From positions 10,824 to 74,823 of IMG/VR virus record IMGVR_UViG_3300032431_000004: 64,000 nt of DNA; one strand, written 5' to 3'. Every line of letters starts with the position of its first letter. The stretch's first letter is position 1. Source of the stretch: a virus. Both the position numbers and the translations under genes were made by a program. Below, piece after piece: positions 12,366 through 62,166 of the stretch. The notes under the pieces are model-generated. The model saw only the letters and a program-made list of their open reading frames with translations, made no database searches and was not told the DNA's origin.

Positions 12366-12490
12366 AAAAACAGGCAGTGTCATGTTGACTGTCATACTTT
12401 TGGCAACACATTCTAAGCCTTGCTGAGCATGAGTTAGAAGCCTGCCGTCGCAGCGTCACTGACATCTAGTAGTTTTAGGTTTGCTGCCAA
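12366..12490 (+). repeat. Palindromic dispersed element, copy 1 (left arm only)
   Basis: aaaacaggcagtgtc-atgtt-gactgtcatacttttggcaacac...ctgccgtcgcagcgtcactgacatctagtagttttagg. Confidence 0.9.
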
Positions 12491-12764
12491 AGACTTAAGA
12501 TGGCAGCGATCGCCCATGTTAGGAAAAAAGGAATGCTTGCAGGCTTCTGGTTTTGCTTCAATAGCTATCTAGACTGGCATCGGTTAATGGTTCAGGCGTA
12601 CAACCAGTCGTTTAATCAGTTCAAATTTTTCAGATGCTTAGGGCAAACCGAATGGTTGACTTGAGGCAGCAATCGGCAGGCAGCGCTGCGCGATCGCCCA
12701 TAGCTTCATTTTCTTTAGCCGCCTGATTTGGGCGGCTTTCCTTTGGGCGATCGCGTTTTTCGCT

Positions 12765-13064
12765 AAAAGTAGGCAGTGTCATGTTGACTGTCATACTTTT
12801 GGCAACATACTCTAACCCATACTCAGTAAAGCTTAGACACCTGCCGTCGCACTGTCATTGGCATTAAGAGTTTTAGATTCTGAGATTAGGATTATCTCTA
12901 AGAAGATTAGATATTTAATTCAGTGAATTAATAACTCTGAATCCTCTCCTATTTTGAAATCAGAAAAATCAATGACAGTGCGACGGCAGGCATCTAAGCC
13001 ATATATACCAAGGCTTTAAGTGTGTTGCCAATTTGTTGACTGTCACGTAGACACTGCCTGTTTT
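12765..13064 (+). repeat. Palindromic dispersed element, copy 2 (full, ~300 bp)
   Basis: ~100-bp imperfect inverted arms around an AT-rich centre ttaattcagtgaattaa. Confidence 0.95.
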
Positions 13065-13094
13065 TTTGGGGATTCTAGCAGCTGAGACTACCCC

Positions 13095-13260
13095 TAAAAA
13101 GACTCAGGTATTTAATCCAATAGATTGAATACCTGAGTCTTCCCTTATTTTGAAATCGTAAAAGTCAATGACGCTGCGACGGGAGGTGTCTAACCCATAC
13201 TCAGCAATACTTTAACCCTGTTGCCAAAACAATGACAGTCACGTAGACACTGCCTGTTTT
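13095..13260 (+). repeat. Palindromic dispersed element, copy 3 (centre + right arm)
   Basis: Central hairpin aagactcaggtatttaatc/gattgaatacctgagtctt, then arm ending gacactgcctgtttt. Confidence 0.9.
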
Positions 13261-13281
13261 CCCAGAATGCCACCGGCTAAA

Positions 13282-13803
13282 TCAGCTATTCAAATAATCT
13301 GCCAAAAGCTGATTCAGTTCATCCCTGACGCCTGGGTACAGATCCCCATTAGCATCAACAGGCAGGAATGGCCGCGCCGGAACACTTGCCCTCGGTGCCC
13401 CAAAGTTATGAATAGCTCCTAGATCGTAGCGACCGACTTTTTGAGCAGTGCCCACTTCAGCAGCATTATTAGTGGCACGGGAGTACAGTGAATTGAAAAG
13501 CGCCCCAGACCATTGCAGCTTCAGTTTGCCGCCAGCTTTAGGCGCTCCCCTGGTGTTTGTACCTTTTCGCTTCTTACGGCTGCTGTAGCCCTCCTTATAG
13601 CGTCTGTACCGATCGCTTAATTCTGCCCACGGTTTTCCAGCGGCACCGGGAGCGCGTTGATTTTTGAATGCCCTGACAGCTTCAGCCTCAAGGTAATTCG
13701 CCCACGCTTTGTAAAGTGGCTGAGGTTTTCTGATTTTGGCGATCGTTTCCGATAGAATGCGATCGCCCGTGAGTTGGGATACATCAAATTCAAAGGTTGA
13801 CAT
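13282..13803 (-). CDS. Virion morphogenesis protein (Mu gpG / tail completion S family)
   Basis: W..LS..Y, L..SG.L..S, AIHNFG, VPARPFL. Confidence 0.85.
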   Translation of the reverse strand: MSTFEFDVSQLTGDRILSETIAKIRKPQPLYKAWANYLEAEAVRAFKNQRAPGAAGKPWAELSDRYRRYKEGYSSRKKRKGTNTRGAPKAGGKLKLQWSGALFNSLYSRATNNAAEVGTAQKVGRYDLGAIHNFGAPRASVPARPFLPVDANGDLYPGVRDELNQLLADYLNS

Positions 13804-13810
13804 GCTGACC

Positions 13811-14497
13811 TCAGAGTAGTGGTTCTGATTTTCCTTCCCAATCCCCACAGGTGCTACCGTCTACCCCGGTAGGGTGCATGGCACAGACAAGTTTGTTGCC
13901 GCCATAGGACTGCCCGTGGTAGTTGGTGCAGCCATCGCAGGCGATCGGCTTAGAAGGATTGAGGGACTGAACGGCTCGCGTCCACTCATCTCTACGTGCT
14001 TGGGGAAATCTTCTAGTACTAAACTCTTCTATTAAGTTCATCATTGATAGATCGTTTGATCTTAATTCGTCAATTGATAAAACTGTCAGGGAACGCCCAG
14101 CACTACGAGAGTCAGCTTCCCCGATACCTAGAGAAGCGCCAACGATGCCAACCCCATAGACATCGCTGCCCAGTGATTCCCCGGCTGCTAGTGCGATCGC
14201 CTGCTGCCTTGCGGCGTATTGACTAGACCTTCCAAAAAACCTATCTCTTGCCAGTTCAAACTCAGGGCGGTACTGCCTGTATATGCGAGGCACCAATCGG
14301 AACCCGTCTAGGAACCCGAACCACTCAACTGCCCCTGTGCAAAATAGATCAAAGAATTCGCGGTAGGAAGGCAGTTCAAGCCGATCGCACGAGATCTGTA
14401 TGTGACTGTCCACTCTCCTGTTATCCCTGACACCCTTCGATGAAAGCAGCTCAGCTACTATTTCCACAATCGCCATTTTTTCAACATCTAAGGACAT
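13811..14497 (-). CDS. Hypothetical protein with C-terminal cyanobacterial Cys-rich domain
   Basis: CDGCTNYHG...VCAMHP.G...CGDW; same motif in 20040..20618. Confidence 0.65.
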   Translation of the reverse strand: MSLDVEKMAIVEIVAELLSSKGVRDNRRVDSHIQISCDRLELPSYREFFDLFCTGAVEWFGFLDGFRLVPRIYRQYRPEFELARDRFFGRSSQYAARQQAIALAAGESLGSDVYGVGIVGASLGIGEADSRSAGRSLTVLSIDELRSNDLSMMNLIEEFSTRRFPQARRDEWTRAVQSLNPSKPIACDGCTNYHGQSYGGNKLVCAMHPTGVDGSTCGDWEGKSEPLL

Positions 14498-14543
14498 AGG
14501 ATTTCCTATAGGGTAGACTTCCCCCTATCCTACCAGCGCGCCA

Positions 14544-15293
14544 TCAGCTTGCAGGCAGGCTGCCATTGGCAAAACCAGCATTAACCCGATCGCGCTCTTG
14601 AGCTATCTGAGCGGCGATAGTAGGCGGCGATCGCGCAATGACTGCCTCAATAATCTCAGCCCGTTTTGCTGCTGATGTCGTTCCCGGCGCATAATCAAAC
14701 CCAGGATCAGGCTCGATCGACTGACCTGCTATCTGATCGCCCCGCTTCAGCACGCTCACTTCTAAGTTTTCAGATAAAAGCGATCGCACTGACAGGCTGA
14801 TATATCGGCATGAGCAGCCGTAGCCATTTGGCAATGACATGGGCACGTCTTGAGCCGGGAACACCGTACCGTCTAACGCTATGTGGGTAGGCCGTGGGTG
14901 CGTTGCGCCTCCGTGGATAAGCTGCCGATACGGTTGCAGCCGCACAACGTCAGGGTCAGTCTGCTGTTGCTCCCGGCCAGCCCCGTACGACATTTTTAGA
15001 TTGGTGTTGTAAATGACATTGGCTCTCCATGATTTGTTCCCAACCCAGTCGCCAGCTATCTTCTCAAACTCTGCGCGGAATTCGTCAGGCCGTTGCCCTA
15101 AAGCGATCGCCCTATCCAATGCTGCCCTGATGCCAGACAATAAATCGCCCTTGGCACCGGCAACAACAAAAAAGGCGTCATGCTGATCGTCCGTAATGTC
15201 TCGCCAGGTATCGGTGCCAAGGTTAATTTTGTCAAGAAGATAGGCGATCGCTTCAGGGTATGGCTTGGTAGCGTAGGCCGAATTACTCAGCAT
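14544..15293 (-). CDS. Minor head morphogenesis protein (Mu gpF/SPP1 gp7 family)
   Basis: AFFVVAG, IYNTN...Y.AGR, RPTH..LDG, PNGYGCSC, PDPGF. Confidence 0.9.
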   Translation of the reverse strand: MLSNSAYATKPYPEAIAYLLDKINLGTDTWRDITDDQHDAFFVVAGAKGDLLSGIRAALDRAIALGQRPDEFRAEFEKIAGDWVGNKSWRANVIYNTNLKMSYGAGREQQQTDPDVVRLQPYRQLIHGGATHPRPTHIALDGTVFPAQDVPMSLPNGYGCSCRYISLSVRSLLSENLEVSVLKRGDQIAGQSIEPDPGFDYAPGTTSAAKRAEIIEAVIARSPPTIAAQIAQERDRVNAGFANGSLPAS

Positions 15294-18065: not shown

Positions 18066-18165
18066 CGTTTTTGCCTTTTGCTGCTTACTTTTATAGTATG
18101 TCACAAAAAGAGTGGGAATAGTGGGAAGTTTCATATTGACTGCGTGAAGATGTGCGATCGCGCTT

Positions 18166-18463
18166 AAAAGAGGCAGTGTCAACATGACTGTCATACTTTT
18201 GGCAACACACTCTAAGACTTACTGAGTATGGGCTAGACACCTGCCGTCGCACTGTCATTGGCATTAAGAGTTTTAGGTTTACTGCCAGAGTTCCCACTAA
18301 AAAGATTCAGGCATTTAATCTCAGCAGATTAAATGCCTGAATCTTCTCCTATTCTGAAATCACAAAAGTATGTGACGCTGTGACAGCAGCCTTCTAAGGT
18401 ATACGTATCAGGGCTTTAGGTATGTTGCCAAAACAATGACAGTCATGTTGACACAACGCTTTT
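18166..18463 (+). repeat. Palindromic dispersed element, copy 4 (full)
   Basis: Inverted arms; perfect 19-bp central hairpin aagattcaggcatttaatc/gattaaatgcctgaatctt. Confidence 0.95.
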
Positions 18464-18466
18464 ATC

Positions 18467-19294
18467 CTACCGAGATCCGGTCAAGCTCCACTGGTGCCGT
18501 TGTGCGCCAGTTCCCCTGCGCTCTACCTTGCCTTCCCGTTGCAAAACTTTCAGAACCCTGTAGACATAGGTGTGTGAAAGTTTTACCTCACCTACGATTT
18601 TGTCAGACTGGGACTGTCCTGAGCTGAGAGCGTTCAGCACTTTTCGCTTTGCATCTTCTCCTACGTAGCCAGATTCTCCAATCGTTCTGGACTTCTTGAC
18701 TGGCGAAGCGCTACTTGCCGATCGCATTCCCTGCGTTGGCTGAGCCACTGCCTGAGCCAGCATGAGCTTGGCCTTCTCAAGATCAATCTCTGCCAGTCTG
18801 ACGTCCAGTTCCTTCAGTCTGACCTGATTGTCAACCAATGGCGGCTGAGGACTGGCTGTGGGCATCCACCCGGTCTTTGAATGAATAAGAGTTCGCAAAC
18901 CAACCCCGCTGCTCAGTAAGAGCGATCGCTTTGCTTCCTTGGTTTGATCCTTTGGAGCGGCAAAGCAGGCGTAGTAGCTAATCATCGCTGAGCAGAAAAC
19001 GTCAGGCAAGATTTCTGACCCATAAGGATCGGAGCTGTTTACTACTGGCAAAGCAATACCAGCAAAGCTTTTTAGGCATTCTGGGAGGTCGTTGCTTATC
19101 GGGTCAGAAGATCGGATCTTTTGCACCCAGTAGCTAATCGAAGGCTGAGATTTACCTACAAAACGACCTAGGCCACGATGGCTCATACCAGAACGACCGC
19201 TCAGCCGCTCGGTATAGTATTCAATCCCATCTTCCACAAACTTGATGAAATCGCCGCTCTCAGGTGCATTAAGCAATTGGATTTGTGCAGACAT
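18467..19294 (-). CDS. Antirepressor-like DNA-binding protein (N-terminal HTH, C-terminal winged helix)
   Basis: DGIEYYT...GMS.RGL.R; paralog of 34527..35297; C-terminal LSHTYVYRVLKVLQREGKV. Confidence 0.65.
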   Translation of the reverse strand: MSAQIQLLNAPESGDFIKFVEDGIEYYTERLSGRSGMSHRGLGRFVGKSQPSISYWVQKIRSSDPISNDLPECLKSFAGIALPVVNSSDPYGSEILPDVFCSAMISYYACFAAPKDQTKEAKRSLLLSSGVGLRTLIHSKTGWMPTASPQPPLVDNQVRLKELDVRLAEIDLEKAKLMLAQAVAQPTQGMRSASSASPVKKSRTIGESGYVGEDAKRKVLNALSSGQSQSDKIVGEVKLSHTYVYRVLKVLQREGKVERRGTGAQRHQWSLTGSR

Positions 19295-19313
19295 AGCTAA
19301 AACTTGGTAAGTG

Positions 19314-19331
19314 ATGCTACTATCATAGCAT
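19314..19331. promoter_or_regulatory. Putative operator palindrome between divergent regulators
   Basis: atgcta-ctatca-tagcat. Confidence 0.4.
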
Positions 19332-19355
19332 GAAGTATTTACTTTGAGGTTACTC

Positions 19356-19496
19356 ATGACTACCAAAAAGCACGCGATCGCAGCCTATCTAGACGAAAAG
19401 GAAGTTGAGTTCTTATGTGCGATCGCATTGGAGTGGGGATGCAGCATGTCTGCCGCCATCAAAAGGCTAATTAGAGAGAAGGCGAAGGAGGGTTGA
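19356..19496 (+). CDS. CopG/ribbon-helix-helix small regulator (46 aa, not in track)
   Basis: RBS GAGG; MTTKKHAIAAYLDEKEVEFLCAIALEWGCSMSAAIKRLIREKAKEG. Confidence 0.7.
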   Translation: MTTKKHAIAAYLDEKEVEFLCAIALEWGCSMSAAIKRLIREKAKEG

Positions 19497-19517: not shown

Positions 19518-19632
19518 ATTTCAAAATCACAAAAGTCTGTGACGCTGTGACAACACAACTCTAGTGTATACATACCAATACTTTAGGTGTGTTGCCAAAC
19601 TAATGACAGTCATGTTGACACTGCCTGTTTTT
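19518..19632 (+). repeat. Palindromic dispersed element, copy 5 (right arm only)
   Basis: aaatcacaaaagtctgtgacgctgtgac...gttgccaaactaatgacagtcatgttgacactgcctgttttt. Confidence 0.9.
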
Positions 19633-20039: not shown

Positions 20040-20618
20040 TTAGGCATAGTCATTGCAAAATTCCCCATTCCCGCTGGGATGCACGGCACACACAGTCAGC
20101 ACATTTCCAATTTTTGCCCCAAAGAAGTAGTGGCAGTCATGGCAGATGGCAGGAATAGCAATGGAAGGAGGAGAAGAGGTAAAGGCAGCGGAAGGATTAT
20201 ATTTGACCGCACTTCCTCGAATTTTCTTATACGATACATAGCCGCGTGCCTGAATCGTCGTGTCCATGTAGGTCAAGATCCTTCTAGCAATTTCAGCGAT
20301 CACATATTTTGGCGATCCTTGAAGGTTCTCAAAAATGTCAAGATCTACGCAGTATTTAAATCCCACGGAACCATCTTCAGGATCTAGTCCAGGCTGGCGT
20401 GCCACGGCACTTAAGACAGCCGTTCTGGGACTCATTGAGTTGTAGACTTCTGACGAGCAGAAAGACCGAACTCTTATCTCCCACTCCGTCCGAAGTCTTT
20501 TCATTTCACTCTGCACTTCTGCCGCAAGCTGGCTGCTTGACATCAAAGCCATTTGAATTGCCCTCCTAAATGTGTCTGCACTTCCTAGCATAGATGCTAC
20601 CGCGATCGCACGTCCCAA
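20040..20618 (-). CDS. Hypothetical protein with C-terminal Cys-rich domain
   Basis: CHDCHYFFG...VCAVHPSG...CNDY; start uncertain. Confidence 0.6.
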   Translation of the reverse strand: MGRAIAVASMLGSADTFRRAIQMALMSSSQLAAEVQSEMKRLRTEWEIRVRSFCSSEVYNSMSPRTAVLSAVARQPGLDPEDGSVGFKYCVDLDIFENLQGSPKYVIAEIARRILTYMDTTIQARGYVSYKKIRGSAVKYNPSAAFTSSPPSIAIPAICHDCHYFFGAKIGNVLTVCAVHPSGNGEFCNDYA

Positions 20619-22485: not shown

Positions 22486-22764
22486 ATGAGCAAGGCAATG
22501 AGATACCTGAAACAGATTGACAAAAAGCGATCTGCAAGCAGCGCTACGCTATCGCACCTAGGAAGGATGTCACCACCGACAGAACCCGTCCATGTGGCAC
22601 CTGTCCTAATATCTACAACTAGATGGGCGGATACTCGTACTGATCCAGCGCAAGATCTCAGGGACGTTTGGCAAACAATGAGAGAATATAATGCCGTCGC
22701 GGATTATCACAAGGCTCAAAAGATTCTTGAGTATATCGAAAAAAGATCTGCTCGCTCTAAGTAA
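22486..22764 (+). CDS. Hypothetical protein inserted antisense between terminase genes
   Basis: Fills the 300-bp gap; GAGGGA upstream of ATG 22486. Confidence 0.45.
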   Translation: MSKAMRYLKQIDKKRSASSATLSHLGRMSPPTEPVHVAPVLISTTRWADTRTDPAQDLRDVWQTMREYNAVADYHKAQKILEYIEKRSARSK

Positions 22765-26991: not shown

Positions 26992-27416
26992 TGATTTACG
27001 CCACCGTAACCGACATGACAACAGCGTTTGGGTTCGACGAAATCCTCGAACTCAGCACCCTTGATGACGCGGCAGCTCAATCTATTGACGCTGCTGTAAT
27101 CGAAGGTGCGATCGCTGATGCTAGCGGGCTAATCAATGGCTACCTACAAGGGAGGTATACGTTGCCGCTGCTGGTTATTCCTGCCATGTTACGGCGCATC
27201 TGCTGTGATATTGCCCGGTACTATCTCCATCGGATTGCACCGTCTGAGGACGTTTTAGAACGGTATAAAAGCGCTCTAAAACTGCTGAGTGAAATCGGCA
27301 CCGGGCGGGTTGATCTAGGGCTAGCGGTTGCGGACTCACCAGCTGCGGTGGGTGGTCTGCCCATCTTTGTCGCTGGCGATCGCATTTTTACTGCTGCTAA
27401 TTTGCAGAGATATTGA
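26991..27416 (+). CDS. Head-tail connector (Mu gp36/DUF1320)
   Basis: YATV.D, AS..INGYL.GRY.LPL, CDIARYYL, RYK.AL. Confidence 0.9.
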   Translation: MIYATVTDMTTAFGFDEILELSTLDDAAAQSIDAAVIEGAIADASGLINGYLQGRYTLPLLVIPAMLRRICCDIARYYLHRIAPSEDVLERYKSALKLLSEIGTGRVDLGLAVADSPAAVGGLPIFVAGDRIFTAANLQRY

Positions 27417-27856: not shown

Positions 27857-28596
27857 TGGCATTACTTTATGGGATTGGATCTTTCGACTTTCTCACTCTT
27901 GGCCTTACGCCAGAACGCTTGCTACCAGTTGAGCCGATGGAGTTTACGTTGGCGGGTGAAAGCACTAGCAAAACCTCCACTAAATTCAAAGATGGCATCT
28001 TGGTAACTGCGGGAACGGCTCAGGCTGGAGAGACTTTTACTCTGACGATTGGGATTGAGGCGGTGAACTGGCTATCGTTGCAATTTGCTTATGGTGAACT
28101 TGCAGGCACTACCGCTAGCATCGCACTGCCAACCCTCAAGTATGCTACGATTCCCGCCCTAACCCCGTTTGAGATTATTGATACGGATCTGACGTCCTTG
28201 ATTGTTTACGCAACGAACTTGGCAAGTGGAATCCCACTGACTCGTGTTGTTGGAGTACCTGCGGCGTCAGGAGAATTCCAAGTAGTGACGGGCACAACTA
28301 GATTAATCTTCCACTCTTCTGACGCTGGAAAAGCGATCGCGTATCGTACGTTCAAAGCGTATACGAATGTTTCAACCATCGGGGTTGAGGCAGTTGCTAC
28401 AACCCTGTCAAATTTCCAATTCAGCGGAGTTTGCTACAACGACGAAGAAAAATACGAGCTGGTCATCCCCAGAATGGGGAAAACGAACATCCCTTCGCTG
28501 GGCATTTCTGATGTTACGAAATTGGACGTTGAATTCCAGCTGGCGCTAACGGGTTCTAACCGTAAAGTATTCCAGCTGATCAAGCTACCTGCCTAA
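27856..28596 (+). CDS. Major tail tube protein
   Basis: Position, beta-rich Thr/Gly composition; no sheath gene, so siphovirus. Confidence 0.7.
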   Translation: MALLYGIGSFDFLTLGLTPERLLPVEPMEFTLAGESTSKTSTKFKDGILVTAGTAQAGETFTLTIGIEAVNWLSLQFAYGELAGTTASIALPTLKYATIPALTPFEIIDTDLTSLIVYATNLASGIPLTRVVGVPAASGEFQVVTGTTRLIFHSSDAGKAIAYRTFKAYTNVSTIGVEAVATTLSNFQFSGVCYNDEEKYELVIPRMGKTNIPSLGISDVTKLDVEFQLALTGSNRKVFQLIKLPA

Positions 28597-34526: not shown

Positions 34527-35297
34527 TCAGGTCAGATCCATTTCCATCTGCCAGCCATCACCATAGAATTCATTGCACAATGCCCTGAAATTATCCTTTG
34601 ACCCTCTAGACAGCCCCATGAAGGTGTCTAGCCTGACCACGTGGGGAGCAAGCCTATCACGGATCTCTTCTGGTAGGAATTGGTGAATCTTGTGCCTGCG
34701 AATCCCATTCTGAGGAGGGTTTAGCTGGTTGATTTTTGCCTTTTCTTCAGCCGTCATCCAACTGTAGACAAACTTCCAATAGCCACTGCCGCCAAACCAG
34801 CCAAAAAACGGACGGCAAAATTTAGGATCAAAGAAGATCTCCCACGGCGCGGCTTCATCCAAGATGCGATCGATTGACCGATGCGATTCTGGGGCTGATA
34901 TGTACCGCTCTGGTAACCATCCCGTCTGAGTTTGGATGTAGGAGGTCAAGCCAATGTTGACAGTCGCAGGCAGAACGTCTTGAGCCTTTTCCCTTCCCTC
35001 AAACGCATAGTGTTGGATGACTGCCGCGCAAAAGTCTGACGGCCAAGCGCTGATTTTCCCACCATTCTTTGCGAACTTGGTACGCAGGTCTAAAGCTTTG
35101 CCTGTAAACGGTTCTAGAGATCTAGATACCTTTTTGGTACGCAGCGATTCTAGGAGTTTTCGGATGCTCCCTTCACTAACTCCACAGGCTCTAGCTATAC
35201 CCCGCTGGCTCATGAAGGAAGCCCCGGTAGCTACAACCGTAAAATACTCAACACCATTGATTTCTGATTTCAAAAACTCTAAGCTTGTTACAGCCAT
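34527..35297 (-). CDS. Antirepressor-like DNA-binding protein (P63C-like C-terminus)
   Basis: NGVEYFT..MSQRGIARACG HTH; W...F...F, R.HKIHQFL. Confidence 0.65.
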   Translation of the reverse strand: MAVTSLEFLKSEINGVEYFTVVATGASFMSQRGIARACGVSEGSIRKLLESLRTKKVSRSLEPFTGKALDLRTKFAKNGGKISAWPSDFCAAVIQHYAFEGREKAQDVLPATVNIGLTSYIQTQTGWLPERYISAPESHRSIDRILDEAAPWEIFFDPKFCRPFFGWFGGSGYWKFVYSWMTAEEKAKINQLNPPQNGIRRHKIHQFLPEEIRDRLAPHVVRLDTFMGLSRGSKDNFRALCNEFYGDGWQMEMDLT

Positions 35298-35437
35298 CGG
35301 TCTACCTCTACTAGATTGTGGTCAGCGATCGCACCAAGGTAACAACTCAGTGCGATCGCGCTTCTCTAATTATATGCTGAAATCTCCCTCTGGCATTACC
35401 GCTAGGGGGATTTCTACTTTAAAGCCAATTACCCTCT

Positions 35438-35739
35438 AAAAACAGGCAGTGTCTACATGACAGTCAACAAATTGGCAACACACTTAAAGCCTTGGTATAT
35501 ATAGGTTAGATGCCTGCCGTCGCACCGTCACAGACTTTTCTGATTTCAAAATAGAACAGGATTTAGAGTTATTAATTCAGTAAAATAAATATCTAATCCT
35601 CTTAGAGGTAATCCTTGGCAGCAAACCTAAAACTACTAGATGCCAGTGACGCTGCGACGGGAGGCATCAAGCCTGTGCTGAGTATGGGTTTAACCCTGTT
35701 GCCAAATCCATGACAGTCAACATGACACTGCCCCCTTTT
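35438..35739 (-). repeat. Palindromic dispersed element, copy 6 (full, inverted)
   Basis: Same arms; centre reversed (gatttcaaaatag...aaacctaaaactactaga). Confidence 0.95.
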
Positions 35740-35829
35740 AGCCAAAATGCGATCTGCAAACAGCGCTTCGCGATCGCCCATAGCCTCCAACTGGAATATA
35801 GTGGAAAGCGATCGCGCTTTTGAGGCAAC

Positions 35830-36376: not shown

Positions 36377-37003
36377 ATGCTGAGTAGTCCTGAAAATATT
36401 CAAACGACTGAGGAATGGATCGCTCAACTCTCAGAGGCTACCGGGAAGAGCTTTGAGATAGTGGGAGATATTCTCTTAAGGACGATGCGGACGTTTTACA
36501 AAGAAATTGGAGAAACCTATTTACTAGCTGATCAGCTAGTTGCGGTGATCAGCTCAACCAATACCTCAATCTTAGGATTGGGTGAGTCCTTAGCTTTCGT
36601 AGGGCCGATTGCTGCCCTTATGAACCAGCCACTAGATGACGTTCTAATCCTGCTAGGTCTGCTGGGAGATGCTGGCATTGAGGGGAGTATGGCGGGCATA
36701 GGCTTGATGGCTGTCTTAAATCGACTTCAAGTTACGTCGGCAGCGGCAGAACCAGAATCCATTAAGAGAACTTTTGATATCGTCAGCGCTTCTGCCAAGA
36801 ATAGCGACGGATCAATGAGATCCGTTTTAGAAATACTTCCAGAGCTTCGGGGAAGCATTGGCAAGCTATGGCAAGCTGAGCAAGGCATTTTGATGGAGGC
36901 ATTGTTTGGGGTAGAAGGCGCACCAGTTTTTCAGGCATTGTTCAATACAACTCCAGAACATGTCGCGATCGTTACCAGTCGAGTCAAGAGCGCTGGCAGG
37001 TAG
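36377..37003 (+). CDS. Stand-alone paralog of the tape measure core domain
   Basis: SEATG..E.VGDI..RT.RTF, STNTS...LGESL, NQPLDD.LILLGLLGD, DGSM.SVLEILPE, ALFG match TMP 30163-30747. Confidence 0.85.
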   Translation: MLSSPENIQTTEEWIAQLSEATGKSFEIVGDILLRTMRTFYKEIGETYLLADQLVAVISSTNTSILGLGESLAFVGPIAALMNQPLDDVLILLGLLGDAGIEGSMAGIGLMAVLNRLQVTSAAAEPESIKRTFDIVSASAKNSDGSMRSVLEILPELRGSIGKLWQAEQGILMEALFGVEGAPVFQALFNTTPEHVAIVTSRVKSAGR

Positions 37004-37070
37004 CCGCACCTGAACACCGAAGGAGAGTAGTGGGTTATTCTGAATGGAAATTTAACGAGGTTTCTTACGT

Positions 37071-45983: not shown

Positions 45984-46730
45984 ATGGCAACACTCCACAT
46001 CATAAAGTCAACCTGGTTAAAACAGGCCGCTGTTCAGTCATCAGGGCTGTCAGACGGCAATAAATACGCCGCTAGCGCAGGTCAGACCTTTGAGCTGGCC
46101 AGCTTTGAGTCAATTGAGGATCTGTCAAAAAATGATGGGGACAGCCATGTCAAAATTTTCTTAGCTGAGCCAGTTAAAGAAAAAAGGACATGGTATGTTT
46201 TCCAGCGTGACGTTGCCATCATGGATGGCGATCGCGTTTTGTTCCCGTCGCCTGAAGACGATGAACGTACCGCCAACCGTAAGCTGGCGATCGCGCATGA
46301 CTATTCAGGAATTGTCTTGTGGCTACCCGGTGGGCGAAAGGTTCACTCTGACGAGCCGATTATTAAGTCTGGCAATTTCTCATGGGGTGAAGCTAGCCAC
46401 GGCGGCGAGCGCATCCCTAAAGACAAGCAGACGGTAGAACGTATAGTCAAGCTGGCGATCGCGCTTCAGGACGCTAGGGCGGCTATCGGTAGACCGTTCC
46501 GAATTACCTCATGGTATAGACCAGAGCCGTTCAACTCACGGGTGGGCGGGGCATCGCGATCGCAGCATCTAAATGGCGGTGCCGTAGACATTGTGGTTGA
46601 GGGCTACAGTGGCGCTCAACTGGCAAGGAAGATCAAACCATTCTGGCCTGGTGGCGTTGGGATCTATCCCGGTAACCGTAAACATATTCTGCACTTGGAT
46701 ATCGGAACTAAACGATCTTGGGGAGTCTAA
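45984..46730 (+). CDS. Endolysin, peptidase M15 family
   Basis: ITSWYR..N..VGGA..SQHL.G.AVD...LHLD zinc-peptidase motifs. Confidence 0.88.
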   Translation: MATLHIIKSTWLKQAAVQSSGLSDGNKYAASAGQTFELASFESIEDLSKNDGDSHVKIFLAEPVKEKRTWYVFQRDVAIMDGDRVLFPSPEDDERTANRKLAIAHDYSGIVLWLPGGRKVHSDEPIIKSGNFSWGEASHGGERIPKDKQTVERIVKLAIALQDARAAIGRPFRITSWYRPEPFNSRVGGASRSQHLNGGAVDIVVEGYSGAQLARKIKPFWPGGVGIYPGNRKHILHLDIGTKRSWGV

Positions 46731-47028
46731 AAACAGGCAGTGTCTACGTGACTGACATGCTTTTGGCAACACACTTAAAGCCTTGGTATATATGGACTAG
46801 ACACCTGCCGTCGCACTGTCATTGGTTTTTCTGATTTCAAAATAGGAGAGGATTCAGACTTATTAATTCACTGAATTAAATATTCAGATCTCTTAAGGGT
46901 GATCCTAGGCAGCAAACCTAAAACTACTAGATGCCAATGACGGTGCGACGACAGGTGTCTAACGCATACTCAGTACAGGTTTGAGTATGTTGCCAAAAGT
47001 ATGTCAGTCAACATGACACTGCACTAAT
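46729..47028 (-). repeat. Palindromic dispersed element, copy 7 (full, inverted)
   Basis: Begins within the endolysin stop codon; same arms and centre. Confidence 0.95.
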
Positions 47029-47043
47029 TCAGGGGGTTTCTAA

Positions 47044-49516: not shown

Positions 49517-49980
49517 GTGCGATCGCCTTTCAATTCTTTAATCAATTGCTCCGCTACGATTAACCGCGCTGAACAGTCTGCGAACTTGTAGCCACGGTTC
49601 CACCAAAGATGTTCATCAAACCAATGATAGTCGTCATCGTAAGGGCATTGTCTGTCATTTCCCTCCTTCGATGCTGCGTTGCAGCCTTCGTCAAACCACG
49701 TTTCAATTTTTGTGCTTTCACTGACAAGCGCGATTGGCTTAAACCCTTCAGCCATGACCCCCGACCAGTCAGACTGACCCTGACCCCACCGCACAATTAG
49801 GCAGCTAATGTTGTCATGCCCAACTATATAGGCAGACTCTACCGTTACCACGAAGCTTGGCTCCCACCCTCTTGAAATAAGGTGGGTTAGGGTTTGCGCG
49901 TCTATCGGACTGAGCTTCCCCTTGGTGCCGACAGGGTACTTTAGCTGCAACGCTTGTTCTTGGGTGAATTGATTAGTCAC
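49513..49980 (-). CDS. Hypothetical protein
   Basis: Coupled operon; C-terminal CPY...WW..G. Confidence 0.6.
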   Translation of the reverse strand: MTNQFTQEQALQLKYPVGTKGKLSPIDAQTLTHLISRGWEPSFVVTVESAYIVGHDNISCLIVRWGQGQSDWSGVMAEGFKPIALVSESTKIETWFDEGCNAASKEGNDRQCPYDDDYHWFDEHLWWNRGYKFADCSARLIVAEQLIKELKGDRT

Positions 49981-50195
49981 GTGTGATCACCTCTCGTGAT
50001 TCTTTCAAAAAGGCTCGAAATGTAAAGCAGGAATAGCGGCACGAATGGCATACAAAGGATTGTGACTGCCCACCAAGGAACCAGGACTCCAAACGCTAAC
50101 AGCGCGGAGCTGGTAATTTTCCCGATAAAATACGCATTTGCGATCACAACGAACCCGGCTGCAACGACAATAGCTAAAAGCTTAGGTGTTCTCAT
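49977..50195 (-). CDS. Small membrane protein
   Basis: Two hydrophobic helices. Confidence 0.6.
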   Translation of the reverse strand: MRTPKLLAIVVAAGFVVIANAYFIGKITSSALLAFGVLVPWWAVTILCMPFVPLFLLYISSLFERITRGDHT

Positions 50196-50572
50196 GGGTG
50201 ATCGCCTTCCAAGTTTTCCACTAATTCAAATCTTCCACCAATACCGACTCTCAACCAATCGACCTCAGATGAGATTGCACATGACCTACCACGGCCATGA
50301 GGATTAGAATCGGCAACTAATCCCTGAGAAAAGATCTCATCCCTCAGCCCACCGTGTGACGGGCATTCCCAGCCCATTACTTCTAAATGGTTCCACAGGT
50401 TTTGACACTCTGGACAGGTAGAAAACGCGCTCCATTCGCCTTCCCATAACCCCTTTGCCCGCCAGTAATGTTCACCGGGCGCGATCGCCTTTTGACATTC
50501 GCAGCACCGATGGTATTTTCTGGCCTTTACAGGCTTCGATTCGTATACGTCTGGCCCTTGCTGATCACACAT
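50192..50572 (-). CDS. Cys-rich phage protein
   Basis: KARK.H.C.EC...I.PGE.Y, TCPEC. Confidence 0.7.
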   Translation of the reverse strand: MCDQQGPDVYESKPVKARKYHRCCECQKAIAPGEHYWRAKGLWEGEWSAFSTCPECQNLWNHLEVMGWECPSHGGLRDEIFSQGLVADSNPHGRGRSCAISSEVDWLRVGIGGRFELVENLEGDHP

Positions 50573-50915
50573 TGCGATCGCCCTCCTGCGTTGGTTGGGT
50601 AAACGAACTGACCTCCTCCCGATCCGCCATGCCAACCTGTCTTTTTACCTTCATGCCATGGCCTTCAAGCATCTGGGCAGTTGCTTCCGCCACCTCTGCT
50701 AGGGAATAATTTGAATCCACAACGACATCAAACACCTTTTGACTGGAGTACATGGAGAGAGACCTTACAAATGGGTGAACCTTTAACCCCTGCATATCTT
50801 TCAGGACGTCTTGATCTAGAACTCGGGCAAACGCAACTTTTACTAAGCCATTGTTTTGTGAGGTTGTGACAGTAGCAGAAGAGACGGGCTGAATCGAATC
50901 AAAATTGATAGTCAT
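50565..50915 (-). CDS. Hypothetical protein
   Basis: Preceded by GCCGGG leader hairpin. Confidence 0.6.
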   Translation of the reverse strand: MTINFDSIQPVSSATVTTSQNNGLVKVAFARVLDQDVLKDMQGLKVHPFVRSLSMYSSQKVFDVVVDSNYSLAEVAEATAQMLEGHGMKVKRQVGMADREEVSSFTQPTQEGDRNV

Positions 50916-50990
50916 AGGGAAATCTCAGTAGGTAGAATGCCGGGGCGCTCCTCCCGGCTGTGCGCTGTGGAGCTGGCAATTATGGGAGTT

Positions 50991-57555: not shown

Positions 57556-57921
57556 GTGGCAAACGGCGAAAGGCGGAAAGAGCTAAGAGTGAACCTGACG
57601 CTCCCCAGCACATATTTTCAGCATCTACGGCGGTGGGCGTCAGAAGTAAGAGAGCAACCCACTAGCCTTGCTGCCAGACTGACGATGGAGGGAATAGACT
57701 CCGCGCTAAAGGAAGGGCGCATACCCGTGGGCATTTCTCCATATCAATCGCTGGCTCATCTAGTGCTAGAAAACTGGGATTTACTTATAGAAGAGAGTGA
57801 AGTAGATCCCGGCCGCCTCAGCTCAATTAGGGACGGCGCAACCCCAGACGAAATGGATCTATTAAAAATTGCCTGCACACTGAAGCTATCGATCAAGGAA
57901 GTGCGATCGCTTTTGCGGTAG
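57556..57921 (+). CDS. Putative repressor (RHH-like N-terminus + XRE-like HTH)
   Basis: RVNLTLP...SLAA; RLSSI.DG..P...LLKIA..L; divergent from 56946. Confidence 0.6.
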   Translation: MANGERRKELRVNLTLPSTYFQHLRRWASEVREQPTSLAARLTMEGIDSALKEGRIPVGISPYQSLAHLVLENWDLLIEESEVDPGRLSSIRDGATPDEMDLLKIACTLKLSIKEVRSLLR

Positions 57922-57960: not shown

Positions 57961-57998
57961 AAAAGCAGGCATACCTTTTGGATATGCCTGCTTTTTTT
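57961..57998 (+). terminator. Repeated terminator, copy A
   Basis: gcaggcata/tatgcctgc + T7 + ggctaaat. Confidence 0.85.
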
Positions 57999-58012
57999 GG
58001 CTAAATGCTGCT

Positions 58013-58313
58013 AAAAAGGGGCCGTGTCAACGTGACTGACATACTTCTGGCAACACCCTCTAGCTCTTACTGAGTATGGGTTAGATGCCTGTCGTCGCAG
58101 CGTCACCGGCATTAAGGGTTTTAGATCCTGAAACTAGGATTGCCCTTAAGAGATCTGAATATTTAATTCAGTGAATTAATAACTCTAAATCCTGTTCTAT
58201 TTTGAAATCACAAAAGTCTGTGACGGTGGGACAACACACTCCTAACCATTGGTATATATAGCTTAGAGGGTGTTGCCAAAACTATGGCAGTCACGTTGAC
58301 ACGGCGCTATTTT
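58013..58313 (+). repeat. Palindromic dispersed element, copy 8 (full)
   Basis: Inverted arms and conserved centre. Confidence 0.95.
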
Positions 58314-58356
58314 GGAAGGTGCTATAGCGCTTTTCAGGAATACTTTGGACAATCGC

Positions 58357-58385
58357 TTGACTATCCCGATACGCTGCACTATATT
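58357..58385 (+). promoter_or_regulatory. Sigma70 promoter (duplicated at 60348)
   Basis: TTGACT-17-TATATT followed by gggagataagaaacga. Confidence 0.8.
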
Positions 58386-58435
58386 GGGAGATAAGAAACG
58401 AACACCAACACAGCTCAGTAAAAACGGAAAACTTC

Positions 58436-59095
58436 ATGACTACTAAATTCGCTTTTGCTTACACCGACTCTGGACTACTCCCTAGATTTCGTGACAATCA
58501 CTTTCATTATCATCATTTCTTTCCATCAAAAGGAGAATACGCAATCATTGAACCATTAATCTCGGGAAGCGAGATGTCAGGAGGTTTTGATCTTGCTGTT
58601 AAATTCTTAGCTACCAGGGATGACCGACTGCATGAAGAAGCCAGCGAAAATGATGGCGAATTACCCTTTGGCTGCTGTTCATCCTATGTAGAACCAGAGC
58701 TGCTGTGCATCTATGAAACCACCTCGGGCACGGTTCTATGTGTGGACGTACATGGCGATCGTCAAATCTCGATACCAATTGTTAGAGCTGGAGGTTTCCA
58801 CCACAAAATCATCTTGCTAGTGCTAGCCGGGATTACAGCAGCTCAGCTGAGCCGATACGAAAACCTTCATACGGTCGGTGCAGATGAATTTGAGTCAGCA
58901 CATAAAGAGCGCAAAGCTCTCTATGATTCAATCCTCTGCCAGCACGGGTACGAGCCTTATGAGTCTTGGGAGCAACACGTTCAAGCTGAATGCGATCGCA
59001 AAGATCGCCTCGCTTCTGGAGTTGGCGAATGGTCGATTGATGATACCGATTATGAGGATTACGAGGGCGCAGATTTACAAGATGACGGCAATTGA
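58436..59095 (+). CDS. Hypothetical acidic protein (cassette 1)
   Basis: Downstream of promoter. Confidence 0.65.
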   Translation: MTTKFAFAYTDSGLLPRFRDNHFHYHHFFPSKGEYAIIEPLISGSEMSGGFDLAVKFLATRDDRLHEEASENDGELPFGCCSSYVEPELLCIYETTSGTVLCVDVHGDRQISIPIVRAGGFHHKIILLVLAGITAAQLSRYENLHTVGADEFESAHKERKALYDSILCQHGYEPYESWEQHVQAECDRKDRLASGVGEWSIDDTDYEDYEGADLQDDGN

Positions 59096-59100
59096 TTCTC

Positions 59101-59427
59101 ATGCCTAGAAGAAATCCTCAAGAGGGCGATCGCGTTCGCCCTCACGACAAGACCAGTAATCTGCGCGGAATAATCACGATAGCCTCACCGCAGCCGGGAG
59201 GCGAAGTGACAATCAGAGTTGGCGTAGATGGCAGCCTAACCATCCAAGGCACATGGAAGGAGCTAAGTAAGTCATGGAGCATCACAAAGCCCATTAACAC
59301 CCAAAGGAGGGTTCTGACGATGCCCCTGGAGATAGATAAAGAATTGGTGATGATTGGGGATGAGCAAGGGCTATCGCCTGAGGCAGTCGCCATTGAGCTG
59401 CTGAGGGATGCGATCGCATCTAGGTAA
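59101..59427 (+). CDS. Protein with C-terminal RHH/Arc-like domain; paralog of 61471..61797
   Basis: MPR.NP, GTWKEL, NTQRRVLT.P..ID.EL...EQG.SPE.VAIELLR. Confidence 0.75.
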   Translation: MPRRNPQEGDRVRPHDKTSNLRGIITIASPQPGGEVTIRVGVDGSLTIQGTWKELSKSWSITKPINTQRRVLTMPLEIDKELVMIGDEQGLSPEAVAIELLRDAIASR

Positions 59428-59502
59428 AAAGTAGATCAGCCTGATAGCATTTCTAGCCAGTCATTTTCGTAGAAAACTAAATCAAAAAGAGTAGAGAATC
59501 TA

Positions 59503-59916
59503 ATGCCAAATTACCTAGTGTTTCGCTCCCCTACTGGAATTCGTGCTGTTGTACTGGGCGCACCCGGTACAGGAGTGCCAAAAGACCAAGTTATGAGAGA
59601 AGATGAACGATTTGCGGTGGTCATTGATGACGTTCCTAGTCCAGAGGCGGCGATTTGGAAGGCTGCGCTGGAATACCACGAAGATGCGATCGCCGGAATG
59701 ATGAAGGTATTGGTTTTTTATCTGGACGAAATCGACTGGGATCGTGATAGCACTTTCAACGCAGAAGTCGTAGACGAAGTTTTTAAGAGCCTCCATCGAC
59801 TCCACAAAGAAGGGCTTTCCTGCACTCAGGAGCTTGAAGATCTGACCCCGCATTGGATCGTCCCTGGAAAAGAGGTTGAGCCAGAAGAGAGTCTTGAGCA
59901 GCTAACCCTGATCTGA
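59503..59916 (+). CDS. Hypothetical protein flanked by 22-bp direct repeat
   Basis: aaaagtagaYcaRcctgatagc at 59427-59448 and 59936-59957. Confidence 0.65.
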   Translation: MPNYLVFRSPTGIRAVVLGAPGTGVPKDQVMREDERFAVVIDDVPSPEAAIWKAALEYHEDAIAGMMKVLVFYLDEIDWDRDSTFNAEVVDEVFKSLHRLHKEGLSCTQELEDLTPHWIVPGKEVEPEESLEQLTLI

Positions 59917-59955
59917 TCGGGTTGCACTTAAGTCTAAAAGTAGACCAACCTGATA

Positions 59956-59990
59956 GCGGGCATACCCAAAAAGTATGCCCGCCTTTTTTT
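59956..59990 (+). terminator. Repeated terminator, copy B
   Basis: gcgggcatac/gtatgcccgc + T7. Confidence 0.85.
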
Positions 59991-60005
59991 GGCTAAATGC
60001 CACTG

Positions 60006-60305
60006 AAACAGCGCAGTGTCTACGTGACTGACATACTTTTGGCAACACACTCAAACCCTTACTTAGCACGGCTTAGATGCCTCCCGTCGCAGCGTCACTG
60101 ACATTAAGGGTTTTAGATTCTGAGATTAGGATTAGTCCTAAGAGATCTGAATATTTAATTCAGTGAATCAATAACTCTAAATCCTGTTCTATTTTGAGAT
60201 CGTAAAAGTCAATGACGGTGGGACAACACACCTCTAAGCATTGATATATATAGTTCAGAGGGTGTTGCCAAAAGTATGTCAGTCAACATGACACTGCCTT
60301 GCTTT
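60006..60305 (+). repeat. Palindromic dispersed element, copy 9 (full)
   Basis: Inverted arms and conserved centre. Confidence 0.95.
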
Positions 60306-60347
60306 GGAGGGTGCATGGCACTTCTCAGAAATACTTTAGCTAATCGC

Positions 60348-60376
60348 TTGATTATCCCGATACACTGTACTATATT
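60348..60376 (+). promoter_or_regulatory. Sigma70 promoter (paralog of 58357)
   Basis: TTGATT-17-TATATT followed by gggagataagaaacga. Confidence 0.8.
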
Positions 60377-60425
60377 GGGAGATAAGAAACGAGTCCAGCA
60401 CGCCAAACACAAAAGAGAAATTAAA

Positions 60426-61220
60426 ATGTTTACCTTGAATGTTGCCCCTCAATTGACTCATTCCTTTGGCTGGCAAGAGCTAGAAAAGATTGAAGCTTTC
60501 AAGGCTTCTGTCATGTCGCTATCTGGCGACGTGCGGATGCCAAGCGATATCTGCATTGATATCACTTCGGAAGAGAGCGAGAAATTCAACACTACTATTT
60601 ACGAAATGGTTGCAAAGGTAAGGGGCGAGGATGTCTATAGTCAAAACTTTAGGCAGACCACGGTTGACGACTTCCGGCTGTCAAACTACTCTTTCCGTGA
60701 ACTCTTGGGAAAGGTTATATCAACTCAAGTCATCGACGGACTCCTGCCCCTTGAATGGGTGGAATTGCTTGAGGTAAGTGGCTTGCCTTGCCCTAGGAAT
60801 ATAAGCCATAAGCTACTCCCAGGAGTTAAAGCCTGGTCTGATGGTGCGATCCAAAAAGCAACCTGGAGTGGAGAGTGTGAAGATATATTCTTGACTAAAG
60901 CTGGCAGTCAAAACTGGAAAGTCTGCTTCGTTAACGGGGATACGTTCTACCTCCCACCTAGCGGGTGGACGGCAAAGGTTGAGAGCCTAGAAAAGGTTGA
61001 AGCTAGGCTGGCAGCGGTAGAGTCTCAGAGAGCAGATGAGTCGCTAGCTGCGGCACAGAGATACATTGGCTGGGCGGTGTCAGCAGTCGTTGGGAGCGAG
61101 ATCACCCTTACGTCTCCTACTGGGGAAACGGTAGCAATCAAAGCGTCCCACGAAGTCTGGGACTGTGGAAATAAGAGTCAATCATGGCTGGTCATCGGTG
61201 GCGATTGCTTCTTGAGTTAA
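60426..61220 (+). CDS. Hypothetical protein (cassette 2)
   Basis: ATG 60426 after promoter; track start lies inside the repeat. Confidence 0.65.
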   Translation: MFTLNVAPQLTHSFGWQELEKIEAFKASVMSLSGDVRMPSDICIDITSEESEKFNTTIYEMVAKVRGEDVYSQNFRQTTVDDFRLSNYSFRELLGKVISTQVIDGLLPLEWVELLEVSGLPCPRNISHKLLPGVKAWSDGAIQKATWSGECEDIFLTKAGSQNWKVCFVNGDTFYLPPSGWTAKVESLEKVEARLAAVESQRADESLAAAQRYIGWAVSAVVGSEITLTSPTGETVAIKASHEVWDCGNKSQSWLVIGGDCFLS

Positions 61221-61274
61221 TCTTGCGACCCTGACACGATCGCATTCCAGCCAACCCAGGAGAGAAAACAGAAA

Positions 61275-61478
61275 ATGAGTCAGTTCACCCCCGCTCAAAA
61301 CGATTCTGCTAAAGCCTACCAAGCCTACGTTGATGGCGGATGGGCTAAGAACGAGTTTTATAGCTATGCCTCAAACAACGATCCCTATGGATGGAAAGAT
61401 TCTTGGATAGGAGAATCCTTTTCTCAGTGGCTAGCTACTGAGCTAGTGGGAAGAGAGCACAAGAGCAATTATGCCTAG
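61275..61478 (+). CDS. Small hypothetical protein
   Basis: RBS AGGAG. Confidence 0.6.
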   Translation: MSQFTPAQNDSAKAYQAYVDGGWAKNEFYSYASNNDPYGWKDSWIGESFSQWLATELVGREHKSNYA

Positions 61479-61797
61479 AGGAAATCCCAAACCAGGCGGC
61501 TCTGTTCGCCCTCGCGACACGACCAGCCAGCTCCGAGGATACATCGATCCAACCTCGTCCATCGATCAGGGGCGCGTTATCATCAGGGACGCAGTAGACG
61601 GTGCCCTGATCGGCTGTGGCACATGGAAGGAGCTGCGCAAGGTCTGGCTCCTCATGAAATGCGTTAACACCCAAAGGCGGGTTCTGACAGTGCCACGGGA
61701 TATCGACAGCGAATTGATAAGGCTGGGGGTGGAGCAAGGGCGATCGCCTGAGTCTGTAGCCATTGAGCTGCTGAGAGGGGCGATCGCGCTTAAGTAA
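61471..61797 (+). CDS. Protein with C-terminal RHH/Arc-like domain; paralog of 59101..59427
   Basis: High similarity at protein and DNA level. Confidence 0.75.
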   Translation: MPRGNPKPGGSVRPRDTTSQLRGYIDPTSSIDQGRVIIRDAVDGALIGCGTWKELRKVWLLMKCVNTQRRVLTVPRDIDSELIRLGVEQGRSPESVAIELLRGAIALK

Positions 61798-61816
61798 AAA
61801 GTAGATCAGCCTGATA

Positions 61817-61850
61817 GCGGGCATACCCAAAAAGTATGCCCGCCTTTTTT
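61817..61850 (+). terminator. Repeated terminator, copy C
   Basis: Stem identical to copy B. Confidence 0.85.
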
Positions 61851-61864
61851 GGCTAAATACTTTC

Positions 61865-62166
61865 AAAACAGGCAGTGTCATGTTGACTGACATACTTTTG
61901 GCAGCATACTCAAACCCTTACTGGGTATGGATTAGGTGCCTCCCGTCGCAGCGTCACTGACATCTAGTAGTTTTAGATCCTGAGATTAAGATTAGCCCTA
62001 AGAGATCTGAATATTTAATTCAGTGAATTAATAACCCTGAATCCTGTTCTATTTTGAAATCAGGAAAATCAATGACAGTGCGACGGCAGGCATCTAAGCC
62101 ATATATACCAACGCTTTAACCCTGTTGCCAAAAGTATGTCAGTCACGTTGACACGGCGCTATTTTT
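61865..62166 (+). repeat. Palindromic dispersed element, copy 10 (full)
   Basis: Inverted arms and conserved centre. Confidence 0.95.

Follow-up and report, generated by a model that had tools for sequence, protein, structure and literature searches.

Dispersed palindromic elements of a phage genome as candidate origin-like modules for its plasmid-type replication initiator

What role might be played by a palindromic, non-coding element of ~300 bp that recurs between the genes of a single phage? The question is raised by a stretch of viral DNA of 64,000 nucleotides (hereafter the window), which represents bases 10824-74823 of the 74.8-kb IMG/VR virus record IMGVR_UViG_3300032431_000004. A sequence-only reading of the window had described seven full and three half copies of this element, all of them intergenic, and had suggested that they are sites bound by a protein. 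A repeat search of the window and an nhmmer profile built from the seven full copies each bear this census out, with the profile recovering all ten places; the first 10.8 kb of the record, to the left of the window, hold no further copy. We set out here the evidence that the phage's own replication initiator, Rep, which was absent from the candidates listed in that reading, looks the best candidate for the protein in question, because the Rep gene holds the same arms as the elements and its plasmid homologues hold equivalent iteron arms.

Anatomy of the element and the arm pair in the Rep gene

The ten places, in window coordinates, are as follows.

12366-12499, + strand: half copy, left arm and start of the centre (nhmmer model positions 1-139, E 4.8e-36; repeat family D4)
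12765-13066, + strand: full copy (nhmmer E 2.5e-97; alignments A1 and A2)
13080-13261, + strand: half copy, centre hairpin and right arm (nhmmer model positions 120-301, E 1.4e-35)
18165-18465, + strand: full copy (nhmmer profile)
19518-19632, + strand: half copy, right arm only (nhmmer profile)
35436-35740, - strand: full copy between a divergent KilA-N/BstA-like gene (34527-35297, - strand) and the tail genes (nhmmer)
46727-47030, - strand: full copy between an M15 peptidase (endolysin) gene and a DUF3307/pilin/EAL accessory block (nhmmer)
58012-58315, + strand: full copy, first of a tandem cassette array (repeat search, nhmmer)
60004-60307, + strand: full copy, second of the array (repeat search, nhmmer)
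61864-62167, + strand: full copy, third of the array (repeat search, nhmmer)

Full copies measure 297-305 bp. Mean column identity is 80% among the seven window copies and 83% among 27 distinct full copies. The description of ~100-bp imperfect inverted arms built of fixed boxes is also confirmed, since the arms are inverted repeats of ~100 nt that align without gaps around invariant boxes and are ~70% complementary. Each arm is an array, ~90-100 bp long, of short boxes: an outer palindrome, TGTCA-N3-TGAC (in this phage TGTCAAC(G/A)TGAC), and, inward of it, CTGAG at ~45 nt, GTCGC at ~+69 and GTCAC at ~+77. The two arms face each other over an AT-rich centre of ~100 bp whose GC content is 30-36%, compared with 50% for the record; such a centre is of the kind that forms the unwinding region of an iteron-type origin, and is predicted to melt. 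The centre had also been credited with a hairpin of its own, but this is strong only in the 18165 type, in the copies on contigs L025 and L069 and in the 13080 half copy, and is weak in the rest. Round the genome the elements run + + - - + + + by strand. An orientation rule was considered and rejected, given that this order matches neither the direction of transcription at all copies nor a Ter-like two-arm pattern.

Throughout the 27 copies, invariant boxes alternate with variable spacers of fixed length. Since the boxes are invariant, the spacers vary at fixed length and the arms do not covary with one another, the element fits recognition of double-stranded DNA by a protein, in keeping with the protein-bound site suggested by the sequence-only reading. 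We are fairly confident that the element is a protein-recognised module of double-stranded DNA and neither a miniature inverted-repeat transposable element (MITE) nor an RNA. The same alignment bears on whether it might act instead as structured RNA or single-stranded DNA, with a long hairpin or cruciform serving as an RNase III site, a terminator or a replication hairpin. Arms that are complementary over 100 nt would suit such a function, as would the compensatory variants seen in the central hairpins of four copies and the one arm pair, columns 28/278, which covaries (AT 12, TA 10). Yet the complementarity of the arms is 69.7/100 within a copy against 69.1 between copies, the RNAalifold covariation term amounts to -0.24 kcal/mol with predicted pairs falling almost entirely between invariant boxes, and local hairpin energies are inconsistent among copies, ranging from -2 to -29 kcal/mol. 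In addition, the window has no Rfam match at gathering thresholds (a tRNA scan of it likewise found nothing), and the orientation of the copies relative to transcription is mixed. We consider a structured RNA, which had been put forward previously, to be extremely improbable.

The observation that carries our argument lies just upstream of the window, where Rep, a 915-aa DUF3987 primase-helicase, is encoded (L072:5125-7872). Of the 17 matches to the outer-box pattern TGTC-N5-GACTG-N-CA in the 74.8-kb record, 15 are in elements and the other two are both inside the Rep gene; shuffling gives an expectation of 0.03. The two boxes, at record positions 6048 (+) and 7685-7701 (-), belong to the best inverted repeat in the gene (34 nt, 85% complementary, 1586 nt apart) and define arms (record 6048-6140 and 7610-7701) which point inward, as they do in the elements. 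The resemblance extends into the arms, with the arm profile aligning the two sites over model positions 10-97 and 10-88, an inner GTC[AG]C box standing at +76 in both Rep-gene arms compared with +77 in element arms, and CTGAG lying at +45 in Rep arm B just as it does in the elements. A composite pattern that combines the outer and inner boxes is found outside the elements at these two places only, against 0.1 expected. One relative of the protein, P0004, encoded on contig Ga0209591_10003032, is 93% identical to Rep; searches of viral contigs for the Rep-arm pattern and for Rep relatives returned nothing.

Equivalent arms in plasmid Rep genes and the reading they favour

Homologues of Rep in PLSDB come from 54 records, all of them cyanobacterial plasmids, and these include 7-kb plasmids in which Rep is the only recognisable replication gene. 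Five plasmid Rep genes, from Gloeothece citriformis, G. verrucosa, Chroococcidiopsis CCNUC1, Nostoc cf. commune SO-36 and Tolypothrix PCC 7910, each hold an inverted arm pair 1.6-2.0 kb apart inside the open reading frame, with an outer palindrome and inner tandem boxes.

L078:26483-26590 and 28400-28496: arm pair in a plasmid Rep gene
L080:6168 and 7983: arm pair in a plasmid Rep gene
L079:5937 and 7623: arm pair in a plasmid Rep gene
L081:2919-3015 and 4540-4648: arm pair in a plasmid Rep gene
L082:2818-2919 and 4441-4554: arm pair in a plasmid Rep gene

When the phage Rep is aligned with the five plasmid proteins, which are 31-39% identical to it, site A falls at alignment column 434/435 in all six and site B at columns 1113-1132. 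The plasmid boxes are lineage-specific in sequence (TGTCACCGGTGACA, TGTCACCAGTGACA, TGTCAGTACTGACA, TGTCTACGTAGACA), and within each replicon both outer sites share one core and the arms match each other; in Nostoc the match is 100%, as it is for the outer boxes in Tolypothrix. The peptides encoded by the two arms of a Rep gene are unrelated, which points to constraint on the DNA. The composite pattern is present exactly twice in each replicon tested, inverted and inside rep, and in the 29-kb plasmid pP742403 the core is found only at the two rep sites. A further case is provided by the 7.6-kb plasmid pOSC7112.05, on which a remote Rep homologue is the only replication gene that can be recognised and has inverted GTCCACA iteron arms in its 3' part. 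Lineage-specific boxes that recur in one replicon and go with its Rep gene are the hallmark of iterons, and the rep-internal arm pair is probably the plasmid origin. In the literature that we searched there was no description of paired iteron arms in DUF3987 Rep genes; work on plasmid replication by CyRepA is not applicable, as CyRepA is a DUF3854 rather than a DUF3987 protein. Replication in a widespread class of cyanobacterial plasmids would thus probably start from an iteron-arm pair at fixed positions in their DUF3987 Rep genes, an idea that would be useful in the design of cyanobacterial vectors.

Taken with the arms in the phage gene, these data favour a reading in which each element is an additional, non-coding version of the site that the phage's own plasmid-type initiator recognises, which would make the elements origin-like, predicted Rep-binding modules; in our judgement the case for this stands about level with the case against. 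Each element would then be two iteron arms of the Rep-gene type, set back to back round an AT-rich centre. Rep would bind both arms, the centre would be the part that melts, and the bound modules may act as secondary origins, as fork barriers, or as both, following the model proposed for phage SPP1. Any breaks that resulted could be repaired by recombination-dependent replication, and the modules may thereby become hot spots for conversion between copies and for the turnover of cassettes. We propose that copies convert each other, and that adjacent DNA turns over, because of breaks at initiator-bound modules. If this is true, an initiator recognition site can leave its gene, multiply through a genome and become a standard junction for the exchange of accessory genes, and replication, recombination and modular phage evolution would be linked in one cis-element.

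A bolder extension, which we think distinctly unlikely, is that the modules are functional Rep-dependent origins, each one a miniature of the Rep-gene iteron pair with its interior deleted. A cassette looped out between two of them would then form a minicircle able to replicate on Rep provided in trans, representing a replicative counterpart of integron cassettes or of the mini-circles associated with the promoter early stem-loops (PeSLs) of other phages, and would amplify moron genes and spread them between co-infecting phages.

Several points weigh against the Rep-based reading. The link from Rep to the boxes is one that we infer from sequence, and the Rep-gene arms score marginally under the arm profile (E 0.07 and 0.17). 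In arm A coding constraint contributes, since stretches of it specify the conserved peptides VTG and AVT, and the rep mRNA could itself fold through pairing of two inverted arms that lie 1.6 kb apart. The arm profile fails to detect the plasmid arms (E above 2), and the plasmid comparison is consequently one of layout and position, not of sequence. A Calothrix Rep homologue lacks such a pair, and a third-codon test between the two Gloeothece rep genes, whose proteins are 80% identical, was uninformative. Seven to ten modules of an origin type would be unusual for one 75-kb phage. Other DNA binders also adjoin some of the copies (two KilA-N/BstA-like proteins and four putative ribbon-helix-helix proteins), and most of the ~12 insertions and deletions in two long syntenic relatives lie away from the elements.

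Recombination, gene borders and distribution

The 27 copies are mosaics of one another, with a four-gamete minimum number of recombination events (Rmin) of 50 in 306 columns, intervals that span the whole element, and linkage among columns that decays within ~30 bp. The centre of one copy, on contig L036, is closer to the 46727 copy (95.9% identical) than to its own ortholog (79.4%), and the L068 copy behaves likewise in its left arm (95.9% to another copy, 81.6% to its ortholog). This is short-patch conversion among copies, inverted and distant ones included, with no single crossover core. It might be asked whether the elements are instead sites for site-specific recombination or gene capture, comparable with attC, att or res and served by an unrecognised recombinase, as the sequence-only reading had considered. 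The tandem array has one element per unit, its units are present or absent among variants, and the imperfect palindromic structure is like that of attC. Six-frame Pfam searches of the whole 74.8-kb record, however, found no known recombinase family, neither tyrosine integrase (PF00589) nor serine recombinase (PF00239), and equally no rve or Y1 transposase, in agreement with the earlier statement that transposase and integrase are lacking; breakpoints are spread over the element rather than gathered at one core, and units are also deleted by crossover in paralogous ribbon-helix-helix genes. We regard a dedicated recombination site as scarcely credible. A partition (parS-type) site, another of the earlier candidates, was rejected because the ParA/ParB families PF02195 and PF13614 are absent from the record. 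Searches for RecT, ERF, YqaJ and PDDEXK nuclease found none.

The DNA beside the copies is variable among relatives. In three contigs (L029, L058 and L068) the left flank of copy 58012 is joined to the right flank of copy 60004, and in L030 there is different cargo between the promoter and the ribbon-helix-helix gene. The KilA-N/BstA-like gene beside copy 35436 is missing from L049 and L028, and next to copy 18165 there is in L025 an insertion of 3 kb, which includes two additional partial copies. The 19518 half-copy site holds a nearly full or longer copy in L040 and L032, and in L051 the element appears to be inverted at the site next to window 13261. Logan contigs from four DNA runs add reordered units and the unit deletions 59085>61469 and 59150>61524; both joints are crossovers inside paralogous ribbon-helix-helix genes, as homologous recombination produces. 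Joints between opposite strands inside elements (46801<>58238 and 46883<>60134) are possible assembly chimeras and were not used as evidence of inversion. The claim that copies border accessory blocks stands in so far as the neighbouring blocks do vary among relatives, but insertions and deletions are also frequent away from the copies, and the association of the element with variable blocks is real but not exclusive.

Some further observations concern the cargo itself. In one variant a TnpB gene of the IS607/IS605 type (L065:176-1909; Cas12f1-like TNB and HTH_OrfB_IS605 domains) is inserted immediately ahead of the terminator in front of an array copy, and in one relative an HNH/NUMOD4 homing-endonuclease gene (L032:728-1267) takes the place of window gene 20040-20618, just past the 19518 half copy. 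The relative L059 lacks the stand-alone gene at window 36387-37028, which is made of a tape-measure fragment (36377-37003). In some variants (L027 and Logan contigs) the cargo gene 59503-59916 is found next to the 49.5-50.9 kb region (49518-50940), partly inverted, where the window has no element.

The copies sit at operon borders, and the order within each unit of the tandem array is terminator, element, promoter, cargo. The transcription signals of the array, all of which lie outside the element, are listed here.

59956-59982, + strand: intrinsic terminator just 5' of an array copy (repeat family D8, terminator scan)
~57961-57996 and 61817-61843: equivalent terminators (terminator scan)
58357-58385, + strand: sigma-70-type promoter TTGACT-17-TATATT just 3' of an array copy (repeat family D10, promoter scan)
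60348-60376: paralogue of the promoter at 58357-58385 (promoter scan)

Four genes immediately upstream of copies (57556-57921, 59092-59427, 61471-61797 and 19356-19496) have products read as ribbon-helix-helix proteins. The pattern is N-terminal in two products and C-terminal in the two paralogues; Pfam matches fall below the cut-off for the first two, and for 59092-59427 and 61471-61797 Pfam gave no ribbon-helix-helix support, so that these are assigned from the C-terminal sequence pattern alone. Two further paralogous genes, 34527-35297 (-) and 18467-19366 (-), encode an N-terminal KilA-N/BstA-like DNA-binding domain, and each adjoins the right arm of an element; their PADLOC matches are to BstA (E 2.5e-14 and 3.5e-5) and to PDLC01151 (HTH; E 2.3e-33 and 1.7e-19). 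In Salmonella, BstA from prophage BTP1 stops phage DNA from replicating, and a cognate DNA element neutralises it (PMC8585504); by analogy there may be a BstA-type link between these proteins and the elements.

This arrangement is the setting for a different explanation, in which the element is a regulatory linker like the PeSLs: an intergenic junction, bound by a regulator other than Rep (of the ribbon-helix-helix or KilA-N/BstA-like type), that insulates transcription units and provides homology for cassette exchange. Placement at operon borders, and between terminator and promoter in the array, would be expected of such a linker, and both types of putative regulator gene abut copies, the ribbon-helix-helix genes with weak Pfam support. 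The 18165 copy has a perfect 20-bp hairpin (-28 kcal/mol) in its centre, with TTTTT after it on the - strand, and so resembles an intrinsic terminator that would serve the - strand gene upstream; the hairpin of the 13080 half copy is likewise followed by TTTTT on the - strand and lies downstream of a - strand Mu-G-like gene. Relatives also lose, replace or reorder cassettes at the copies, and the PeSLs of T4-type phages behave in this manner (PMC2839356). On the other hand, the element has no conserved internal sigma-70 promoter, the best being an 8/12 match in the AT-rich centre of 22/27 copies, and its hairpin is weak in most copies. Orientation relative to the flanking genes is mixed, with the four single copies one way and the three array copies opposite. 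A linker of this kind leaves the arms in the Rep gene, and the equivalent arms in plasmid Rep genes, unexplained, and we think it unlikely. A candidate inward promoter in the right arm, TTGGCA-17-(G)TATAT, was rejected as it depends on the allele and fails a uniform scan.

The distribution of the element was examined with a 22-base pattern as the database query. The pattern had no match in 185,579 reference genomes and was found in one other viral contig and at 45 metagenome loci; blastn of the element against phage and plasmid collections returned nothing. Of the metagenome loci, 43 come from close relatives (83-93% nucleotide identity) and have a context that overlaps this phage (a few have new cargo on one side), and the remaining two are a CRISPR (clustered regularly interspaced short palindromic repeats) array. 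The elements are a real, lineage-specific family. Only one more distant relative is available (TerL 58% identical, record 87% complete); it has neither the element nor this Rep, a co-absence that we count in favour of the Rep-based reading.

These results bear on the possibility that the element is non-autonomous and resembles a MITE, with terminal inverted repeats of ~100 bp and a transposase supplied by the host or by an unsampled source. Long inverted arms, conserved length and the occurrence of both orientations are all features of such elements, the L051 copy is apparently inverted, and the cassette just upstream of the L065 copy contains TnpB. Against this, there is no target-site duplication, in that no 3-9 nt direct repeat beyond T-run matches was present at any boundary offset tested, and no integrase, resolvase, rve or Y1 transposase is encoded in a nearly closed record. 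Apart from the CRISPR array, all matches to the element come from the phage lineage, and the conservation of boxes and spacers points to selection, not decay. Copy positions are also kept in the relatives, where every covered site is occupied and no empty site was seen; given that these relatives were found through the element itself, empty sites would be hard to see. With no duplication, no transposase, no host copies found and stable positions in relatives, the element is not a classical MITE, in keeping with the earlier view, and we consider a MITE-like origin very unlikely.

The record is described as nearly closed because a related contig (L030:8590-10050) bridges its two ends, joining ~73962 at the right to ~472-1927 at the left. 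It is close to a complete circle or permuted genome of ~75 kb, for which CheckV estimates 78% completeness. The large terminase is ~48% identical to TerL of BcepMu-type phages. The highly iterated palindrome HIP1 (GCGATCGC) occurs 213 times in the record compared with ~1 expected, and this abundance points to a cyanobacterial host. A second repeat, GC-rich and 41 nt long, contains HIP1 (window 12663-12703, 22521-22561 and 35743-35783; core GCGATC-TGCAAGCAGCGCT-CGC-ATCGC); it adjoins two elements and lies at the beginning of terL, and elements in several relatives, as well as those at loose contig ends, are flanked by it too.

The CRISPR array is seen in two contigs, L031:19-3758 (Ga0335397_10067707, 52 repeats) and L043:88-3614 (Ga0335395_10027668, 49 repeats), and has a 37-nt unit (GCTTCAAAGGGGCTGCACATGGTTAGTGCAGTTCATC) for which the reference genomes gave no match. 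The spacer at L031:2233-2270 corresponds to the outer boxes of an element arm (34/38 to window 12776-12813), and at least four further spacers match the phage at window 27029-27064 (34/36), 1428-1454, 8539-8565 and 46638-46663. Because several spacers match this phage, the array probably belongs to its host. The analysis thus yields a probable host array with spacers against the phage lineage, including one against the element itself.

Relation to known systems

Extra arrays of initiator-binding repeats outside a minimal origin are familiar from phage P1 (oriR with incC and incA) and phage P4 (ori and crr). In P1, P4 and iteron plasmids such control arrays lie near rep and number one or two, and their box sequences are lineage-specific and track Rep. 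The elements described here are similar in being extra, lineage-specific arrays of putative initiator boxes, but differ in that they are scattered through the genome, and no partition genes were found. In terms of design they also recall oriL and oriS of herpes simplex virus, which are palindromic origins with boxes for the UL9 initiator-helicase round an AT-rich centre, are placed between transcription units and are present in two to three copies. The proteins and hosts are unrelated, and the likeness to the herpesvirus origins is an analogy of design only.

The closest parallel is offered by SPP1, in which oriL lies inside the initiator gene 38, oriR is intergenic among late genes and beside three morons, and gp38 binds both (PMC6316719, PMC3485210). 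In the model proposed there, forks stall at the gp38-oriR complex, and the collision breaks the DNA and makes replication change to a recombination-dependent mode (PMC6316719, PMC3485210). Like oriL and oriR, the sites considered here are found inside the initiator gene and again at distant intergenic places with transcription signals and morons, and they combine repeated boxes with an adjacent AT-rich unwinding region, which in the present case is predicted. SPP1 differs in having two copies made of direct repeats and in the use by gp38 of a separate DnaB-type helicase, whereas this phage has seven full and three half copies, two inverted arms of ~100 bp in each full copy, and a fused primase-helicase Rep of cyanobacterial plasmid type, all known from sequence alone.

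PeSLs of T4-type phages are ~100 bp long, and their conservation is explained by a sigma-70 promoter and a terminator hairpin (PMC2839356, PMC4122927). They share with our element the form of a dispersed, conserved intergenic motif beside accessory genes, where recombination between copies deletes, inserts and reorders cassettes and where terminators and promoters travel along. In our phage, by contrast, neither promoter nor terminator falls within the element, and what is conserved is the 100-bp arrays of boxes, which the Rep gene has as well. MITEs of prokaryotic and viral genomes are likewise short, non-coding, intergenic and multicopy with inverted ends (PMC11602168), but the present element is without target-site duplication, transposase partner, cellular counterpart or, in the data tested, insertion polymorphism.

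It follows from these comparisons that the duplication of initiator sites outside the initiator gene, as in SPP1, P1 and P4, and the presence of palindromic junction motifs at shuffling cassettes, as with PeSLs, were both already known. What is new here is the copy number, the two-arm palindromic design derived from the Rep-gene pair, the linking of such modules to cassette exchange, and the conserved rep-internal iteron pair in cyanobacterial plasmids.

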